From a virus (lineage: Duplodnaviria; Heunggongvirae; Uroviricota; Caudoviricetes): a stretch of 50,850 bases of DNA. Below are positions 1 to 40,354 of the stretch, in pieces (positions within the stretch are counted from its first letter, which is position 1; each line of letters opens with the position of its first letter). Below the pieces are notes generated by a model. It saw only the letters and a program-made list of their open reading frames with translations, was not told the DNA's origin and did no database searches. The DNA lies in the IMG/VR virus record IMGVR_UViG_2526164600_000002, one strand, 5' to 3'. Position numbers and translations under genes: made by a program.

Positions 1-1284
1 TTACAGACTTCTGGAAGGTTGCGCAGCTCTTACAACACGCGGTTGATCTTCCGCAGCGTCTTCCAGCGCACTTAAATCACGGTCTTTCACCTCTGGCATT
101 TTCAGCGCAGAGATTAAACCAATTACTGAATATGCCATGATCATAATGGCGATCGGATACCAGGATTCCGTCATGGTGCAGAAAATACCCGCCAGGATAG
201 GACCAAAACCGGAAGCGATAAGACCACCAATTTCTTTAGAAATAGCCATCCGGGTAAAGCGGTTTTTACAGCCGAACATTTCTGCCATGGTAATGTTTTC
301 CAGAGCAAATAATCCCAGCACCGCACAGTTATGAATCACAATCAGTGCAACCATAATGGTGCTCGGGGCATAGCTTTTATCTACAATGATAGAAAGCATT
401 GGCCATGCCAGCACAATCGCGGAGGTATTCATAATAATATACGGGATCCGGCGACCAATTTTATCGGATAACCAACCAAGGAACGGAATGGTCATAAAGC
501 CGAGAATCGAACTAATCATCAATGCATCTGTTGGAATTGCTTTGTTAAACAATAACGTCTGCACTAAATAGCCTGCAAGGAAAGTCTGAATTAACCCGGA
601 GTTACCCGCCTGACCAAAACGCAGCCCTGTTGCCAGCCAGAAGGATTTGCTCTGGAACATGCTACCAGCAGGTGCAGGTTTTGCTGTGGGTTGGTTGCTG
701 TCATTAACCTTCTCAAAGACCGGGCTTTCTTTCAGATTCATACGTAACCAGATAGCAAAGACCATCACGACAACGCTCGCCAGGAACGGTATACGCCATC
801 CCCACGCCAGCAGTTCCTCTTTACTGAGAATGAAGAACATAAAGGCCCAGATTGCCGTTGCGCTCAAGGTTCCGCAGTTAGTTCCCATAGCTACAAATGA
901 GGAGATAATTCCGCGCTTACCTTTTGGTGCATATTCCGCCAGCATCGTACCGGCACCGGAAATTTCCGCACCTGCACCCAACCCCTGAATAATACGCAGC
1001 GTCACCAGCAAGATGGGGGCAAAAACACCAATCTGTGCATAGGTCGGTAACACACCAATTAAGGTGGTACAGATCCCCATCATGGTGATGGTAATAAAGA
1101 GCACTTTTTTACGCCCTATTCTGTCGCCCATTTTGCCGAAAATAAATGCTCCGACAATACGCGCCACATAACCTGCACCGTAGGTTCCCATTGCCAAAAT
1201 TAACGCCATTGCCGTTGATGATTCAGGAAAAAATATTTCATGAAACACTAACGCTGCGCCGAGCGAATATAACTGGAAATCCAT
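1..1284 (-). CDS. ydfJ: MFS-family transporter YdfJ (427-aa ORF; window starts at its stop codon); host gene flanking the prophage
   Basis: ORF track 427 aa; hydrophobic multi-helix profile typical of MFS permeases; sequence recognised as E. coli YdfJ, the gene interrupted by Qin in K-12. Confidence 0.8.
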   Translation of the reverse strand: MDFQLYSLGAALVFHEIFFPESSTAMALILAMGTYGAGYVARIVGAFIFGKMGDRIGRKKVLFITITMMGICTTLIGVLPTYAQIGVFAPILLVTLRIIQGLGAGAEISGAGTMLAEYAPKGKRGIISSFVAMGTNCGTLSATAIWAFMFFILSKEELLAWGWRIPFLASVVVMVFAIWLRMNLKESPVFEKVNDSNQPTAKPAPAGSMFQSKSFWLATGLRFGQAGNSGLIQTFLAGYLVQTLLFNKAIPTDALMISSILGFMTIPFLGWLSDKIGRRIPYIIMNTSAIVLAWPMLSIIVDKSYAPSTIMVALIVIHNCAVLGLFALENITMAEMFGCKNRFTRMAISKEIGGLIASGFGPILAGIFCTMTESWYPIAIMIMAYSVIGLISALKMPEVKDRDLSALEDAAEDQPRVVRAAQPSRSL

Positions 1285-2069: not shown

Positions 2070-2303
2070 ATGAAATCAAAAGACACCCTAAAGTGGTTCC
2101 CTGCGCAGCTTCCTGAAGTAAGAATTATCCTAGGGGATGCTGTAGTGGAAGTAGCAAAACAGGGAAGACCTATCAATACCAGAACATTGCTTGATTACAT
2201 TGAAGGAAACATAAAGAAAAAATCATGGCTGGATAACAAAGAATTATTACAAACAGCGATATCAGTTCTTAAAGACAACCAAAATTTAAATGGTAAAATG
2301 TAA
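2070..2303 (+). CDS. ydfK: Small cold-shock-inducible prophage protein YdfK/YnaE-like (77 aa from internal ATG of ORF 2037..2303)
   Basis: ORF track; start MKSKDTLKW gives 77 aa; position immediately upstream of pin as in K-12 Qin (ydfK-pinQ). Confidence 0.6.
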   Translation: MKSKDTLKWFPAQLPEVRIILGDAVVEVAKQGRPINTRTLLDYIEGNIKKKSWLDNKELLQTAISVLKDNQNLNGKM

Positions 2304-2619
2304 TATAATAAACTTACTTTTTTATCATTTTTCCACTTTAACAACATTTTGCTCCTCTTTTCCACGACCAAACAACTTGAAATCTGGTTAAAATAACACG
2401 CAACACTATTCTTCTTCCTTGAGTCCGCCCGGAACTCGAAAAACAAACCGAGTTAAAGCCATTTTTCACAAAATCGATTTTGGGTCTCACCAAAATTACG
2501 GGGTTGCATACGCATTCGTTTATTTTCGAACGTGTACATACAAATATGCACAAAAATAATCATAATTATTTTCTGAGATGCATTATGATATGAACACCAA
2601 TTTCGTATAGAGTCTCACT

Positions 2620-3210
2620 ATGTCTCAAATTTTTGCTTACTGTCGGATATCAACGCTGGATCAGACCACCGAAAATCAACGCCGGGAAATCGAAAGTGCA
2701 GGTTTTAAAATCAAACCTCAGCAAATAATCGAAGAACACATTAGCGGCTCAGCAGCAACCAGTGAGCGTCCTGGTTTTAACCGGTTGCTTGCTCGCCTGA
2801 AATGTGGTGATCAATTGATTGTGACAAAACTGGATCGCCTTGGTTGTAATGCAATGGATATCAGGAAAACAGTGGAACAACTGACCGAAACAGGTATCAG
2901 AGTGCATTGCTTAGCATTGGGGGGCATTGACCTGACCAGTCCAACAGGAAAAATGATGATGCAAGTAATTTCAGCAGTCGCTGAATTTGAACGAGACCTT
3001 TTACTTGAACGCACTCATTCCGGGATAGTAAGAGCCCGCGGCGCAGGGAAACGTTTTGGTCGACCACCTGTGTTAAATGAAGAACAGAAACAGGTGGTAT
3101 TCGAACGAATTAAGTCAGGTGTAAGTATAAGTGCCATTGCCCGGGAATTCAAAACCTCGCGGCAAACCATTTTAAGAGCCAAAGCAAAACTTCAGACACC
3201 TGACATATAA
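2620..3210 (+). CDS. pinQ: Serine recombinase, Pin/Gin/Hin-family DNA invertase
   Basis: ORF track 196 aa; N-terminal catalytic motif YCRISTLDQ (active-site Ser), C-terminal HTH; adjacent to tail-fibre genes. Confidence 0.9.
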
Positions 3211-3283
3211 AAAATAATCTCGGTGTGAGATGCTTTACGTCTTCCAAGCCCCCTGATCCTACCCACGTAATATGGACACAGGC

Positions 3284-4148
3284 CTAAGCGAGGTTCTTGT
3301 TTTCAAATTGTTCCGGACTGAGGCCGCCACACCAACTGTGCCGCCGCCACCGATTGTAATCACATTCGATATAATTAAACACCGTTGCCCGCATTATTTC
3401 CCGGCTGATAAAGTGTTCTCCATGGATACATTCCACTTTCAGCGAATGAAAGAAGCTTTCCACGCAGGCATTATCGTAGCAGCAACCTTTTGCGCTCATA
3501 CTTCCACGCAGATTATGCCGCTTCAGTTGCGCCTGATAATCTGCTGAACAGTACTGGCCTCCTCGGTCCGTGTGAACGATAACGTTCCGGGGCCTCTTAC
3601 GCCGCCACAGCGCCATCTGCAGGGCATCGCAGGCCAGTTGCGCCGTCATGCGTGGCGACATTGACCAGCCAATAACGGCACGTGACCACAGGTCAATGAC
3701 CACTGCCAGATACAGCCAGCCTTCATCTGTACGTAAGTACGTGATGTCTCCTGCCCACTTCTGGTTCGGGCCACTGGCGTAAAAATCCTGCTCCAACAGA
3801 TTTTCTGACACAGGCAGGCCGTGTGCGCGGTAGCTGACCGGGCTGAACTTCCGGGAGGCCTTTGCCCTCAGTCCCTGACGGCGCAGGCTTGCCGCCACGG
3901 TTTTACGTTAAGGGGTAACCCTGAGCACGCAGTTCATCCGTCAGGCGTGGGGCACCGTAACGCTGTTTTGACCGGGTAAAAGCCGCGAGGACAACGCTGT
4001 CGCAGTGTTGGCGGAACTGCTGACGCGTGCTTATCCTTGTCCGCCGCTGACACCACGTATACCAGCCGCTGCGGGCCACCCGGAGCACGCGGCACATTGC
4101 TTTGATGCTGAACTCAGCCTGATGTTTTTCAATAAAGACATACTTCAT
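3284..4148 (-). pseudogene. insF: IS3 transposase orfB (InsF), reading frame broken near codon 80 (ORFs 3903..4148 and 3284..3898 in different frames)
   Basis: ORF track shows two adjacent ORFs that together match InsF (DDE motif region DITYL...HTDRGGQY...); break lies in short T and A runs near 3899-3905. Confidence 0.7.
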
Positions 4149-4444
4149 TTCAGGCGCTTCGCGAAGTATGTCGCGGCCTTTTGGAGGATAGCCAGCTCTT
4201 CATCCCGTTCTGCCAGCTGGCGTTTGAGACGTGCAATCTCGGTAGACATCTCCAGTTCACGTTCAGAAGACGTCTGCTGATTTTGCTGTTTACTGCGCCA
4301 GTTGTAGAGCTGTGATTCATACAGGCTGAGTTCACGGGCTGCGGCAGTAACACCGATGCGTTCAGCAAGCTTCAGGGCTTCACTGCGAAATTCAGGCGAA
4401 TGCTGTTTACGGGGTTTTTTACTGGTTGATACTGTTTTTGTCAT
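4145..4444 (-). CDS. insE: IS3 transposase orfA (InsE), HTH protein
   Basis: ORF track 4145..4453; 99-aa protein from ATG at 4444 ([20 protein letters not shown]...). Confidence 0.85.
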
Positions 4445-4566
4445 GTGAGTCACCTCTGACTGAGAGTTTACTCACTTAGCCGCGTGTCCACTATTGCTGG
4501 GTAAGATCACCCTTCCTTGCCGTAAATGGAAAGATACATCTAATTATAGAATTTATATGTTTTACC

Positions 4567-5142
4567 CTACGGCAGTGCTGGCCATTCAATATCCTGTGAA
4601 GTTGACGTATCAACACGGTTCAGCAATACCCGATACTTTTTCCATGCTTCCAGCAACGAGATTTCTTCCTCCGTTGCAATTTCCAGATCTGCAGCATCCT
4701 GAAGCGGCGCAATATGCTCACTGGCTACCTGCATCAGGTTGTTTTTTATTTCTTCCGCCTCCCGGATCCGGAACAGTTTTTCTGCTTCCGTATCCTTCAC
4801 CCAGGCTGTGCCGTTCCACTTCTGAAACTCTCCTTCCGGCGATAACCAGGTAACATTTTCCGGTAACGGACCGAGTTCAGAAATAAATAACGCGTCGCCG
4901 GAAGCCACGTCATAAACCGTTTTACCCCGATGATCTTCAACGAGATGCCACGATGACTCATCACTGTTGAAAACAGCCACGAAGCCTGCCGGAATATCTG
5001 GCGGTGCAATATCGGTACTGTTTGCTGGCAGACCTGTATGAGGCGGAATATATGCATCACCTTCACCAATAAATTCATTAGTTCCGGCCAGCAGATTATA
5101 AATTTTTATGGTCCGTGGTTGTTCACTCATTCTGAATGCCAT
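4567..5142 (-). CDS. tfa: Tail fibre assembly protein (Tfa)
   Basis: ORF track 191 aa; follows stf with overlapping stop/start; lambda-like Tfa family. Confidence 0.85.
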
Positions 5143-8100
5143 TATGCAAGCCTCACAATATAGTTAAATGCGATGTTTTTGACGGTGTTTTCCGCGTTAC
5201 CAGCAGCGTTAACGGTGATGGTGTGTCCATGTGAACCAATCGCAACGGAGTGCGTATGAGCACCAATACCGACAGTATGCGCGTGTGCACCTGCAGATGC
5301 TGCTGTGCCGGACAGTGAGTGGCTATGATTACCATCTGTACTGGTATTAGCTAACCACCCCGTAGACATACCTACTGAGCCTTGTACACCCCAGGTATTT
5401 TGACCTGAGCTTGTATAACCATATTGATAAGTATCTTTAAAAACACTGGGGTTAAATCGACGGCCATCTCTATGGCTGTGATTACCAGCTGCATTCGTGC
5501 TGCCACTTAAACTATGGGTATGCGCACCAGTGTTATTCGTGGATTTAGTGCCGTAATCAAACGACGATGTGGTTTTCGTCCCCAAATCCGTACTGGATGC
5601 GCTGGCGCTGTGGGTATGCGATTTAATGCCGTCCTGTTCCTGAGACAATACGGCCCGACCACTGGCAGGTTTGCCCTTAATCGTCCAGCCACGCATATCA
5701 GGGATCACGCCTGACGGATAAGCCGCTGCAAGTTTCGGGTATGCAGATTTGTCAAAAGCCTGCCCCTGCATCAGGGCATAACCAGACGGAACGGTATCTG
5801 ATGGCCACGGGATTGGTGCGCCGACTGGGTAGCTTTCTGGTGGAAGATTTTTCGAGGTATAAACTTCTGCCCAGTCTTCCTCAAAACCATAGCCATCTCT
5901 TGAGGAACGGTAGAACAGACCTCCATTTCTGTAATGTGCCTTCATCTGCAAGGTCCGGCAACTTCCGACTCCGGTATAGAAGTTAACCAGAATATAGGTG
6001 TCGCCAGAGCGGGTGACATTGTAAGCGCCTGATTCGGCATTCCAGGGAACGCCACCATCCGCATCGGCATATGTATCCGTTGCCCTTCTGGCAAAAGCAG
6101 CCACATGCGCGGCGGTTAAAGTAATATCTTTGGAACCATCAAACTCAACACCAGAAACCCGTCTTGGCGTTTGCAGCTTTGTTGCTGTTAATGCATTACC
6201 GTTCAGACTTGCGGACAGTTTGGTTCCAATAACCAGTTCGCCGGTTGCGTTATCAATAGAAAACGGTCTTAATGTATTCCAGCCACCATAAACATCACCT
6301 TGATTGGTAAGCAGCAGGTGAGTTTTAGCGCCATCATTACGCCATAATGCACCATACTCCCCACCTATCATTCGAATCTGATTACCACCACGCGCTACAA
6401 TTTCGTCTGTGGCAAAAAGTTTTTTGCACGACAAGTTATCGTTAACGATTAACGAATTAGACTCATAAAAACCACGCCCACTCTTAAAATCAAGGATAAC
6501 GTCCGCCGCGATACATTCAGTCGCCGGATTTGTTGCCCCAAACTTATAGGTCGTATCATTAACAACGAGATCAGCACCAGGTGCGGATATTGACAGGCCA
6601 TCTTCGATAAACGCAAAAACAGGGAAAGCTGCGCCATCAACATAGAACACAGAGCGCAAATCATCGCCCTTATTACTCATCATTATTGAGTGGATGGCTC
6701 GTTCATTGTTTTGATATTGCCAGAACATTCCATAAGCATAACGCCCCCTGTCAGTCCAGCCGCCAGGCATAACAAATCCGTTAAACTCGCAGTTATTCAT
6801 CGGATCGCCTGCGGTTCGCGTTGCCGTGGTGATAATGACCCTTGATGCCAGTTCGCTTACTGAGCCAGCAGAACGCATAACAACAACAGGGTAATATTTT
6901 CCAGATGTTGCACCTGCAGGAGCGTTAACCCGCACATAACGCATACCACGCTTATCAGCAAAGTCTGTTTTACTGACCGCGTTAATGTTGTTCAGGAAGC
7001 GTCCCTTATCGGGTATATCAGCGCCGTTCTGGTCTTTCTGCAGACGTTTCTCTGCATTGTCATAGGCTGATTTTACTGCCTTTGGCGTTGCCGCCAGCGT
7101 TTCAGACGTACTGTTGGTCGCACTGCTTAGCTGAACTATCCCTTTCTGTGCTGTCGTTGCATCCTGTGCGGTGTATTTCCCGTTAGCCAGGTCATACGCG
7201 GCCTTAACGGCTTTTGGTGTTGCCGCCAGTGACTCGGAAGTGCTGTTAGTCGCACTACTGAGCTGTACTATCCCCTTTTTCGTCGTGCTCGCATCCTCAA
7301 GCGCCACGGCGGATGCAATATCCTCTGCCCGTTTTGCCGCTGTCTCAGCGCGCGTTGCTGCAGATTCCGCCGTACTTTTGCTCTGAGCTGCTGCCGTCGC
7401 ACTGCCAGCAGCCTCTGTCGCCTTCGTGGATGCCGTCGTGGCGCTGCCCTTCGCTGCTGACGCCTGTCTGGTCGCCTCATCTTTTGAAGCAGACGCCGAT
7501 GATGCCGATGACGCCGCCGAACTGGCGGACGATGCCGCTGCCGTTTTTGAGGATTCTGCACGGGTTTCCGACGCTTTTGCGTTCGTTTCGGATGTCTTCG
7601 CTGCGGAAGCAGACCTCGCTGCTGCCGTGGCCTGCTCAGTGGCTTCGCCAGCCTTCGTTGTGGCTGTTGAAGCAGACGATGCGGCACTTTCTGCCGACTT
7701 TCCGGCAGCGGTGGCACTGGCTGAGGCCTGCCCGGCACTTGTTGACGCGGCGCTGGCAGATGATGCAGCCGCTGTTTTTGAGCCTGCCGCAGCCGAGGCG
7801 CTCTGTCCCGCTGCCGTTTCAGAAGACCTGGCGTTCGTCTCGGACGTTTTTGCCGCCTTCGCGGAATTTCCTGCCGCCGTTGCCGAGGAAGCGGCACTAC
7901 TGGCGCTCGATGATGCGTTCGTTTCTGATGATTTTGCCGCCTCTTTTGAAGCCGACGCATCCCGTGCTGAAGTGGCTGCTTCTGACGCTTTCGTGGTCGC
8001 GGTGGATGCAGAAGTGGCTGCTGATTGTTGTGACGCTGCCGCATTCGTTTCTGACGTTTTCGCCGCACCGGCACTGGTAGCCGCCGCGCTTTTTGAGGAC

Positions 8101-8678
8101 TCTGCAGCGGCAGCACTTTTTAATGCTTCAGTGGCCTTTGTTGATGCCGTTCCTGCGCTGGAAGACGCTGACTGAGCCGACGAAGCAGCCTGTCCGGCTG
8201 ACGTGCTGGCTGCGCGTGCTGAGCCTGCAGCATCAGTCGCATGGGTTGCCGCCTCACGGGCTGATGTGCTGGCATCGCTGGCTGACTTCTTCGCGGCCGC
8301 CGTGTTCTGTGCCACCGCGGACGCGTTACGCGCCACCTCTTCCACCATCAGTTCAAAACGGCGCAGTGCCTCAGGACGGGCATCATCCTCCGTCATGGCA
8401 CCGAGAAAATCATTCAGCGTACCGGGTCGGGAATCTTCATACACGGTGATGGTCCCGGCATGTGACGGCGGGAATCCTTCCACCAACAGAATAACGCTGT
8501 ACTGACCGTACTCAACGTCCATGCTGTAACGCCCGGCTTCATCCGGATTTTCTGAGGCCAGCGTGTTCACCACCACAGTGGTACTGTTACGTTTTGCTTT
8601 CAGCTGGATTGTGCAGTTCTGTACCGGTTTTCCTGTGCCGTCTTTCAGTACACCTGAAATCTTTACTGCCATATTCAC
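5142..8678 (-). CDS. stf: Side tail fibre protein (Stf), 1178 aa, with long Ala/Ser/Thr-rich low-complexity region, tandem tail-fibre repeats and C-terminal His-x-His repeats
   Basis: ORF track; N-terminus [17 protein letters not shown] typical of lambda/Rac Stf; repeated [14 protein letters not shown] motif; HTHS/HSHS/HAHT repeats at C-terminus. Confidence 0.85.
7065..7290. repeat. Two imperfect ~100-bp direct repeats inside stf, encoding the duplicated tail-fibre repeat motif; followed (7300-8300) by GC-rich Ala/Ser/Thr codon low-complexity DNA
   Basis: Repeat units read at about 7069-7160 and 7191-7290; ORF track shows open frames on both strands across 7268-8505, typical of repetitive triplet DNA. 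Confidence 0.6.
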
Positions 8679-8683
8679 CCCAC

Positions 8684-8715
8684 AAAAAAGCCCGCCTGAA
8701 CCGGCGGGCTGTCAT
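8684..8715 (-). terminator. Rho-independent terminator downstream of lom (hairpin GCCCGCC/GGCGGGC followed by T-run on minus strand)
   Basis: Inverted repeat and A-run on plus strand at 8684-8709. Confidence 0.5.
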
Positions 8716-8736
8716 AACACTGTGTTACCTGGCTAA

Positions 8737-9336
8737 TCAGAATTTATAACCGACACCCACGATGAAACCGTCAGTGCGCCAGTCGCCACTGCCGGAACCT
8801 TCATAAGCGACATCAACGGCCACGGATTCGGTCGGGTTAAACTGCACGCCAGCCCCCCACGCCAGAGACGTGTTGCTGTGGCGACCGTCATTACTTCCGA
8901 TCAGCACATCGTGCGTTTTCCCCGTATTGTCGGTCACCTGCAGATAATCCCCGGAGAAAGTCGACACACGGCTGTAAGCCACACCCGCCATCGCATACGC
9001 GCTGAACCATTCATTCACGCGCACAGACGGCCCCGCCATCACGCTGAACCAGCGGTTACGCACGGAATCTTCATGCCAGCGGGTATCGCTGTAATGCGTT
9101 TTTTGCTCATCTTCAGCGTTGGCATAACTGAATGACGTAATCAGCCCCAGCGTGTCCGTAAACTCATAACGGTATTTCACGTTAATCCCGTTCAGATTAT
9201 CGCTGCCGGGAGCGTTCGTACGGGCATGAAGATACCCTGCGCTCAGTGTGGCCTGCTGCTCAGACGCCCATGCAGGCGCACCGGATACGGCCAGACAGAT
9301 GGCTGCGGACAAAATGGCTGCACAAACTTTACGCAT
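8737..9336 (-). CDS. lom: Lom-family outer membrane protein (Ail/Lom/PagC beta-barrel) with signal peptide
   Basis: ORF track 199 aa; N-terminal signal [24 protein letters not shown]; C-terminal GYKF; position after J as in lambda. Confidence 0.85.
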
Positions 9337-22269: not shown

Positions 22270-22323
22270 AAAAAAATCCCGTAAAAAAGCCGCACAGGCG
22301 GCCTTTAGTGATGAAGGGTAAGG

Positions 22324-23985: not shown

Positions 23986-27665
<3,680 letters not shown>

Positions 27666-39013: not shown

Positions 39014-40354
39014 TCAATCTTTTTTATCGGGATCAGGCTTCTTTTTAGGTAACTTCGGGGGCTTAACTTGCTGATGACTTTGCGTTCGGCGCGTAAGCCA
39101 GGGATGGTCAGCTTTAGGTTTAACATAGTATTTTGAGCGTAAATCAATACGGGCATTATCCACTCGTTCATGGACACTCTTTTCATCATCCAGTGGTATA
39201 GGCTCCGGGCCATCAACATACTTTTCCCAGCCCAGCGCTTTCCCGTCATACAGAACGTTAATTTCACCGTCAAAGTTCTCGCATACAGTAACAACCGAAT
39301 GCCTAAGTCGATATCCCCGGCTCTCACTGCGTACCTGAAACGCACTGCTTTTGTACTGGAAAGTGAGATTTTTAGACAGAACGCGCTTCGCCTGTAGGCT
39401 GAAGATATAACCCAGTTCCTCTTCAGAATGGTGCACATCAAGATGAGCATTATCAGTAGTACGAGGCGACGTAGCGAACCGGTTGTTATAGGCTTCAATA
39501 AAGGTCGGCAACCATGCATTTGCTGTTTCAATATCACTGATATTCTGAAGCCGCATTTCTTTGACCAGCCTGTCCTGTAGTGTCTGATTGGCGCGCTCTA
39601 CCCGCCCTTTTGCCTGCGGGCTGTTGGCATGGATTGGCTCGATGCCCAGTGTCTTTATCGCACGAGTGAACTGGGTCAGCTCACCTTCCCGCTCTGGGTT
39701 ATTTACCCTGAATATACTGTGTCTATCAGAGTAGAGAGCGAGCGGTACGCCACGATCATTAAGGTAACCCCGGAGGGTTTCCATGTAAGCCCGGGTTGTT
39801 TCAGCAGGCACAAAACGCAACGCCATCAACGCACTGGTGGCATCATCAATGAAAACGATCAGTGTACATCTGGGGCCTCGATTTTCAAACCAGTCATGAG
39901 GTGAGCCATCAATCTGGATCAGTTCACCGTAAGATGGTCGTCGCATGCGGCGTTGATATATACGGGCAATTTTACGACGGCGTTCACGCCATAACCCCTC
40001 TTCTATCATCCACTTTCTGAGAGTTTCAACGGATAAAGATAAACCGTGTATCTCGCGCAATTTTTCGCACGCAAACGTAGGTCCAAAATCAGCGTAACGG
40101 CCTTTGAGGAGTGAAATTACTGTTGCTCTGAATTCAGTAGAAAAGGAATTATTAGGACGCTTTCCACGTCGGTGGGAAACCAGACCAGAAGGCCCTTCAT
40201 TTCTATACCGTTGCACCAGACGTTTAACCTGCCGAATAGAAATGCCAATGCGTGCCGCAGCTTGTTCCTGAGTAATATGTCGATTAATTGACTCCTGAAT
40301 AATCTGAAGTCGGTGGAGTTCCTTATGACTCATCGTAACAGTCTCTTTGATCAT
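39014..40354 (-). CDS. DDE (integrase-core) transposase, IS481-like family (tentative), N-terminal HTH
   Basis: ORF track 446 aa; HTH region ARIGISIRQVKRLVQRYRNEG; DDE-type motifs IQIDGS...YSDRHSIF...PQAKGRVERANQTL. Confidence 0.8.
   Translation of the reverse strand: MIKETVTMSHKELHRLQIIQESINRHITQEQAAARIGISIRQVKRLVQRYRNEGPSGLVSHRRGKRPNNSFSTEFRATVISLLKGRYADFGPTFACEKLREIHGLSLSVETLRKWMIEEGLWRERRRKIARIYQRRMRRPSYGELIQIDGSPHDWFENRGPRCTLIVFIDDATSALMALRFVPAETTRAYMETLRGYLNDRGVPLALYSDRHSIFRVNNPEREGELTQFTRAIKTLGIEPIHANSPQAKGRVERANQTLQDRLVKEMRLQNISDIETANAWLPTFIEAYNNRFATSPRTTDNAHLDVHHSEEELGYIFSLQAKRVLSKNLTFQYKSSAFQVRSESRGYRLRHSVVTVCENFDGEINVLYDGKALGWEKYVDGPEPIPLDDEKSVHERVDNARIDLRSKYYVKPKADHPWLTRRTQSHQQVKPPKLPKKKPDPDKKD

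Follow-up and report, generated by a model that had tools for sequence, protein, structure and literature searches.

The stretch of DNA analysed here (the window; 50,850 nucleotides, positions 1-50850) contains a lambdoid prophage of the Qin type, essentially complete (~49 kb), at the ydfJ site. The window starts with a truncated ydfJ gene (1-1284, minus strand), and ynfT, ydfK and pinQ are next. Beyond the short spacer that follows pinQ, the minus strand carries tfaQ, a side tail fibre gene (5142-8678; 1178 amino acids), lom, J and the rest of the lambdoid prophage, up to xis and int at its other end. Its modules comprise tail fibre, lom, J, tail, head, terminase, lysis, cold-shock genes, relBE, hokD, dicB, exo, xis and int, and those for tail, head, lysis, immunity and integration are complete. 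The Qin prophage of E. coli K-12 (ydfJ'-ynfT-ydfK-pinQ-tfaQ-stfQ...) occupies the same chromosomal site, marked by the truncated ydfJ, and shares the gene order and the 97-bp spacer between pinQ and tfaQ. K-12 Qin is, on the other hand, a 20-kb remnant without IS3 at this site, whereas the prophage of the window is full length. The N-terminal half of the side tail fibre protein (1178 amino acids) contains a long low-complexity repeat region rich in Ala, Ser and Thr, and the tail-fibre gene at the same position varies in length among strains (3072 bp in UC4315, 2961 bp in 23-AB02114). The annotation of N1286, a near-identical strain, places a truncated IS1202-like ISEsa1 transposase pseudogene in the early region of the prophage, at approximately 39280-40350 of the window, with two frameshifted pseudogenes after it.

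The pinQ gene (2620-3210, plus strand; so named in the annotation of relatives) is intact and encodes a serine DNA invertase with a Resolvase N-terminal domain (2.5e-36) and an HTH_7 domain; the protein differs from K-12 PinQ at one residue, V159A. Convergent with pinQ is tfaQ (4567-5142, minus strand), an intact gene for a tail-fibre assembly protein (Caudo_TAP) that differs from its K-12 counterpart at two residues. The 3' part of tfaQ, which is coding, also contains a full-length match to the Rfam family RF02111 'IS009' (4601-4799, minus strand; 219 bits, gathering score 117). An IS3 element lies in the short gap between the two genes, where the initial annotation had placed it, 43 bp past the pinQ stop codon and 57 bp from the tfaQ stop codon (54 bp without the duplicated triplet).

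Without the insertion sequence, the pinQ-tfaQ spacer is 97 bp of non-coding DNA and is base-for-base that of K-12 Qin. No reading frame is interrupted by IS3, which sits between the 3' ends of the convergent genes. Folding of the 97-bp empty spacer on both strands revealed no significant structure (z-scores +0.41 and -0.10); therefore no structured terminator was split by IS3. A promoter and terminator scan of 2300-5200 gave only weak consensus matches and no terminator-like site split by the element, the sole terminator-like site in this region being on the plus strand inside tfaQ. The insertion was most likely selectively near-neutral.

The IS3 element and its split orfB

The element (3254-4509, transposase genes on the minus strand) is 1256 bp long, compared with 1258 bp for the canonical copies to which it was aligned. 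It was 99.8% identical over its full length to RefSeq features labelled 'IS3-like element IS3 family transposase' (thousands of features), and both the identification as IS3 and the coordinates given in the initial annotation proved exact. Such matches are present in 4,686 of 5,426 complete E. coli genomes, at a median of 3 places per genome. The canonical length was taken from the RefSeq copies and is also that of the ISfinder entry; a search of the available literature found no paper stating that IS3 is 1258 bp long.

The junction at 3253/3254 reads ...CCAAGCCCCC/TGATCCTACC... and that at 4509/4510 reads ...GGTAAGATCA/CCCTTCC... (slash, end of the element), with the terminus TGATCCTACC beginning at 3254 and the terminus GGTAAGATCA finishing at 4509. 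The right terminal inverted repeat, IRR (3254-3292), lies downstream of the transposase genes and starts TGATCC; the left repeat, IRL (4471-4509), lies upstream of orfA and reads TGATCTTACCCAGC... on the minus strand. The repeats are 39 nt long, imperfect (72% complementary) and of the TG...CA type. Both are identical to those of canonical copies, in agreement with the earlier statement that the IS3 ends are complete. A search of the whole window matched IRL once, indicating a single IS3 copy.

Within the element, orfA (4145-4444, minus strand; insE-like, HTH_Tnp_1) is intact, with its ATG at 4444 according to the RefSeq annotation of the identical N1286 copy. The C_CAA_AAG heptamer read at 4178-4184 (minus strand), the -1 programmed ribosomal frameshift site joining orfA to orfB, is likewise intact, and identical copies carry the RefSeq label 'programmed frameshift'. 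The IS3 shift site has been described as C_CA(A) (PMC5009743). orfB, in contrast to orfA, is broken. Its N-terminal part (3903-4148, minus strand; HTH_21) ends at a premature stop codon, and its C-terminal part (3284-3898, minus strand), out of frame with the first, contains the DDE (retroviral-integrase-like) catalytic core (Pfam rve, 3.4e-28; rve_2, 2.9e-22). No Rfam family matched IS3 or the pinQ-tfaQ spacer. In summary, the element shares with E. coli IS3 (insE/insF, the IS3-family type element) the 39-nt imperfect TG...CA repeats, the orfA/orfB layout, the C_CAA_AAG site, the rve (DDE) domain, a 3-bp target duplication and 99.8% full-length nucleotide identity. It differs in being 1256 bp long, in having orfB broken by two single-base deletions and in one synonymous change. 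Every feature of IS3 that was sought is present, with the exception of an unbroken orfB, whose breaks are probably artefactual.

Alignment with canonical copies revealed three differences, one of them a synonymous substitution at 3563. The other two are single-base deletions within 3901-3911: four T residues replace the canonical five (3901-3904), and AA replaces AAA (3910-3911). The missing T creates the stop codon that splits orfB, and to judge from the sequence as written, this IS3 could not make transposase. The initial annotation was right about the ends; the two deletions breaking orfB in the interior had been missed.

Several comparisons bear on whether the deletions are real. By direct measurement, IS3 is 1258 bp long in ZYB62, S51 and S43; in ZYB62, where it occupies the same insertion site, it is identical to canonical 1258-bp IS3, and the copies in ZYB62 and N1286 are annotated as an intact programmed-frameshift transposase. 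Seven genomes match 2600-5200 of the window in one piece and span 2603 bp there, compared with 2601 bp in the window, so that IS3 is 2 bp longer in those genomes. The whole window was also aligned to N1286, its closest complete relative, the alignment showing 5 substitutions and 8 single-base indels. Each of the indels is a base absent from an A/T run in the window, with no gains. The six losses outside IS3 are at 22282, 25966, 29562, 32840, 40731 and 49674, and those at 25966, 29562 and 49674 map, by the N1286 annotation, to the genes of the terminase large subunit, gnsB and the integrase respectively. An unrelated assembly rich in 'frameshifted' genes has the same loss of one T from the run of five, in a copy of IS3 that sits elsewhere. 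One-directional losses confined to homopolymers are the pattern of a systematic sequencing error, and the breaks in orfB were rated as probable artefacts on this basis. The two deletions are thus likely to be assembly errors and not biology.

It is also possible, with a clearly lower probability, that the element is genuinely dead, two real deletions after the insertion having killed orfB and left a fossil, its ends intact, that would be mobile only with transposase supplied in trans by another IS3. The deletions are, after all, present in the sequence as given, and one of them affects a run of just three A residues, a less typical site of homopolymer error. This explanation, however, must accommodate the 2 bp by which all seven other carriers are longer over 2600-5200, the canonical 1258-bp copy in ZYB62, and six further losses from A/T runs, with no gains, relative to N1286; if real, such losses would also disrupt gnsB and the genes for the terminase large subunit and integrase. 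We consider it unlikely. Should the deletions be real, a date after the insertion is compatible with the data but unproven. Given the homopolymer pattern, frameshifts of the window that appear to make pseudogenes are suspect, those in the IS3 transposase, terminase and integrase genes included.

Target duplication, distribution and origin

Uninterrupted sites, K-12 Qin included, read AAGCCCCCTTCC, while the window has five C residues, IS3 and three further C residues. The left copy of the CCC duplication (3251-3253) consists of the last three residues of the C5 run at 3249-3253, and the right copy (4510-4512) was delimited by comparison with empty sites. The empty site reads ...CCAAGCCCCCTTCC... 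in both Ecol_AZ147 and K-12 Qin, each having C5 and confirming the addition of three residues. In Ecol_AZ147 the flanks are 100% identical to those of the window and the locus spans 1,342 bp, compared with 2,601 bp in the window, a gap that corresponds to IS3 (1256 bp) plus 3 bp. The occupied site therefore has exactly three extra C residues, a true 3-bp duplication and no chance match, and because the IS termini are fixed, the length of the duplication is unambiguous despite the C run. Since it lies inside a homopolymer, the duplication carries little sequence information and its length (+3) alone is diagnostic; C runs could in principle be miscounted in an assembly that loses homopolymer bases. 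The C5/C3 count is the same in seven independent assemblies. Duplications of 3-5 bp are reported for the IS3 family (PMC10379815), and 3 bp is the size to be expected of IS3 itself. These comparisons of empty and occupied sites bear out two proposals of the initial annotation, namely that the flanking CCC triplets are a direct repeat made by the insertion and that the transposition was clean, only the IS and 3 bp having been added between flanks that are otherwise 100% identical.

The distribution of the insertion was determined by searching the 5,426 complete E. coli genomes with junction-spanning queries. Of these genomes, 2,648 (about half) have the uninterrupted pin-tfa junction. Another 10 matched the pinQ-side junction of the inserted IS3, and 7 of those 10 also matched the tfaQ-side junction, so that 7 of the 5,426 contain both. 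The insertion is therefore rare, and it is already known, RefSeq annotating it in seven complete genomes. Prophages that share the identical junctions are 99.5-100% identical. Most simply, the few prophage-carrying strains concerned would have inherited the insertion from an ancestor in which it arose a single time, an origin suggested by the identical junctions and not by a strain phylogeny.

Five other genomes with IS3 in comparable positions were excluded from the count. In UC4224, UC4315 and UC4316, IS3 lies inside tfa, at the equivalent of 4813/4814 of the window, with the duplication CCG; in UC4315 this independent insertion, with its 3-bp duplication, occupies positions 4956-6213 of the locus. 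In MB06172 the element is ~200 bp further from pin, and in 23-AB02114 it lies upstream of ynaM in a Rac-like prophage (locus positions 4032-5194). IS3 insertions may cluster locally near pin-tfa.

Three genomes, S51, S43 and MB06022, have kept the pinQ-side junction of the same IS3 copy but not the tfaQ-side one. In S51 a 1258-bp IS3 has its IRL terminus joined to the equivalent of 12712 of the window, inside J (S51 locus position 5912/5913), with 8,202 bp deleted, comprising tfaQ, stf, lom and most of J. In S43, where IS3 is likewise 1258 bp long, the position joined to IRL is 28644, inside ynfO, and the deletion of 24,134 bp extends from tfaQ through nohA and includes the start of ynfO. Over 2600-5200, MB06022 has the same match pattern as S43. 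The prophage has in this way lost structural genes stepwise, in association with the IS. The deletions in S51 and S43 begin exactly at the IS terminus and their flanks do not match, indicating either IS-mediated adjacent deletion or IS-IS recombination after a second insertion. In contrast to this form of prophage decay, the window itself is without a deletion at IS3, and both flanks are intact.

We conclude, with a probability of about 95%, that the locus results from one IS3 transposition into the C5 run within the 97 bp of non-coding DNA that separate pinQ from the convergent tfaQ gene. Members of the IS3 family use copy-out-paste-in transposition, in which OrfAB, made by -1 frameshifting, joins both ends of the element into a circle, and the circle is then inserted by a staggered cut whose repair generates the 3-bp duplication (PMC10379815; PMC3299598). 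A single event of this kind would have placed IS3 in the C5 run, at the end nearest ydfJ of a full-length lambdoid prophage of the Qin type. Arrival by homologous recombination or prophage exchange, with no transposition in this lineage and a coincidental CCC, is very improbable. The prophage is a mosaic common to unrelated strains and the insertion travels with it, so the event need not have occurred in this host. Empty and occupied sites nevertheless differ by the IS plus 3 bp between flanks that are 100% identical, which is the signature of transposition in whichever host it took place, while IS-IS recombination leaves non-matching flanks, as in S51 and S43. The coincidental origin of CCC is, moreover, refuted by the count of 3 extra bp.

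pinQ as an invertase gene

As in the Din-family switches (Pin/P of e14, Gin/G of Mu, Cin/C of P1), a serine invertase gene here adjoins tail-fibre and assembly genes. The pinQ locus differs from those switches in having neither an inverted pair of crossover sites (~26 bp) nor an alternative cassette. It has one tfa and one stf gene only, both on the minus strand, with no second tfa/stf cassette in the opposite orientation, in keeping with the earlier statement that no alternative tail-fibre segment remains here. The repeats of the e14 P segment are TTGGTTTGGGAGAAGG and CCTTCTCCCAAACCAA, and CCTTCTCCCAAACCAA gave 0 matches with up to 3 mismatches in the whole window. The AAACCNNGGTTT core was sought with up to 1 mismatch in the whole window and up to 2 mismatches within 2300-9000, and did not occur near pin, tfa or stf. 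Half-sites of gix, hix, cix and pix (up to 2 mismatches) were matched only by isolated 12-mers at chance level inside stf and IS3. Inverted repeats of at least 14 nt were absent within the pin side (2500-3253) and the tail-fibre side (4510-9000), and in the reconstructed empty site no 11-mer inverted matches (up to 1 mismatch) connected the spacer with stf or tfa. A few 11-mer inverted matches from upstream of pin were scattered, unlike crossover sites. The possibility of a hidden invertible segment in cis was rejected, the search having yielded scattered 11-mers with a mismatch and no crossover sites. Nothing at the locus is invertible in cis, and with two defining features lacking it should not be filed as a DNA-inversion switch.

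The pinQ gene is orphaned in cis only and is not thereby functionless. PinQ of K-12 is reported to invert the 1,797-bp P segment of e14 in trans (Kirigo et al. 2025, PMC12529663), producing a chimeric StfE2 protein that blocks T2 adsorption, and database searches in the same study found inversions in e14 only and none in Qin or Rac (PMC12529663). By analogy with K-12, the PinQ encoded here would act in trans on an e14 P segment, if the host has one. The earlier view of pin as orphaned therefore stands for inversion in cis and does not extend to action in trans, and its orphaned state is unrelated to IS3. Because the spacer is the same as that of K-12 Qin and the uninterrupted junction is present in about half of the genomes surveyed, the pin-tfa layout is independent of IS3; pin facing tfa without an invertible segment predates the insertion and represents the normal layout of Qin and Rac. 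That the insertion itself orphaned pin, by removing or separating an invertible tail-fibre segment, is scarcely credible: IS3 does lie exactly between pin and the tail-fibre genes, and the same copy has caused adjacent deletions in other strains, but the spacer, once the IS is discounted, has the same 97 bp as in K-12 Qin and in thousands of IS-free genomes, only the IS and 3 bp differ at the insertion point, and crossover sites are absent on either side, so that the empty-site comparison already refutes this explanation.

Consequences for Qin-type prophages

IS3 points in the same direction as the stf-tfaQ late operon and is located directly downstream of it, tfaQ running from 5142 to 4567 and being followed by IRL and by orfA (4509 to 4145 for the two together). 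The terminator scan found no terminator-like site on the minus strand of the tfaQ-IS3 gap. As a speculative reading, which we hold to be improbable, either antiterminated late transcription might read into the transposase genes on prophage induction, or the pin-tfa region might be a preferred IS3 target, the latter idea deriving from the several independent IS3 insertions within a few hundred bases in other strains. If the read-through were true, IS3 expression, and deletions like those in S51 and S43, would be coupled to prophage induction.

The event described here, an IS insertion of the textbook kind into a gap without coding sequence, matters little in itself. It does provide a clean lineage marker for the prophage variant of the window. 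The 8-kb and 24-kb deletions in related strains, which strip tail and head genes, document one way in which an intact prophage of the Qin type turns cryptic.
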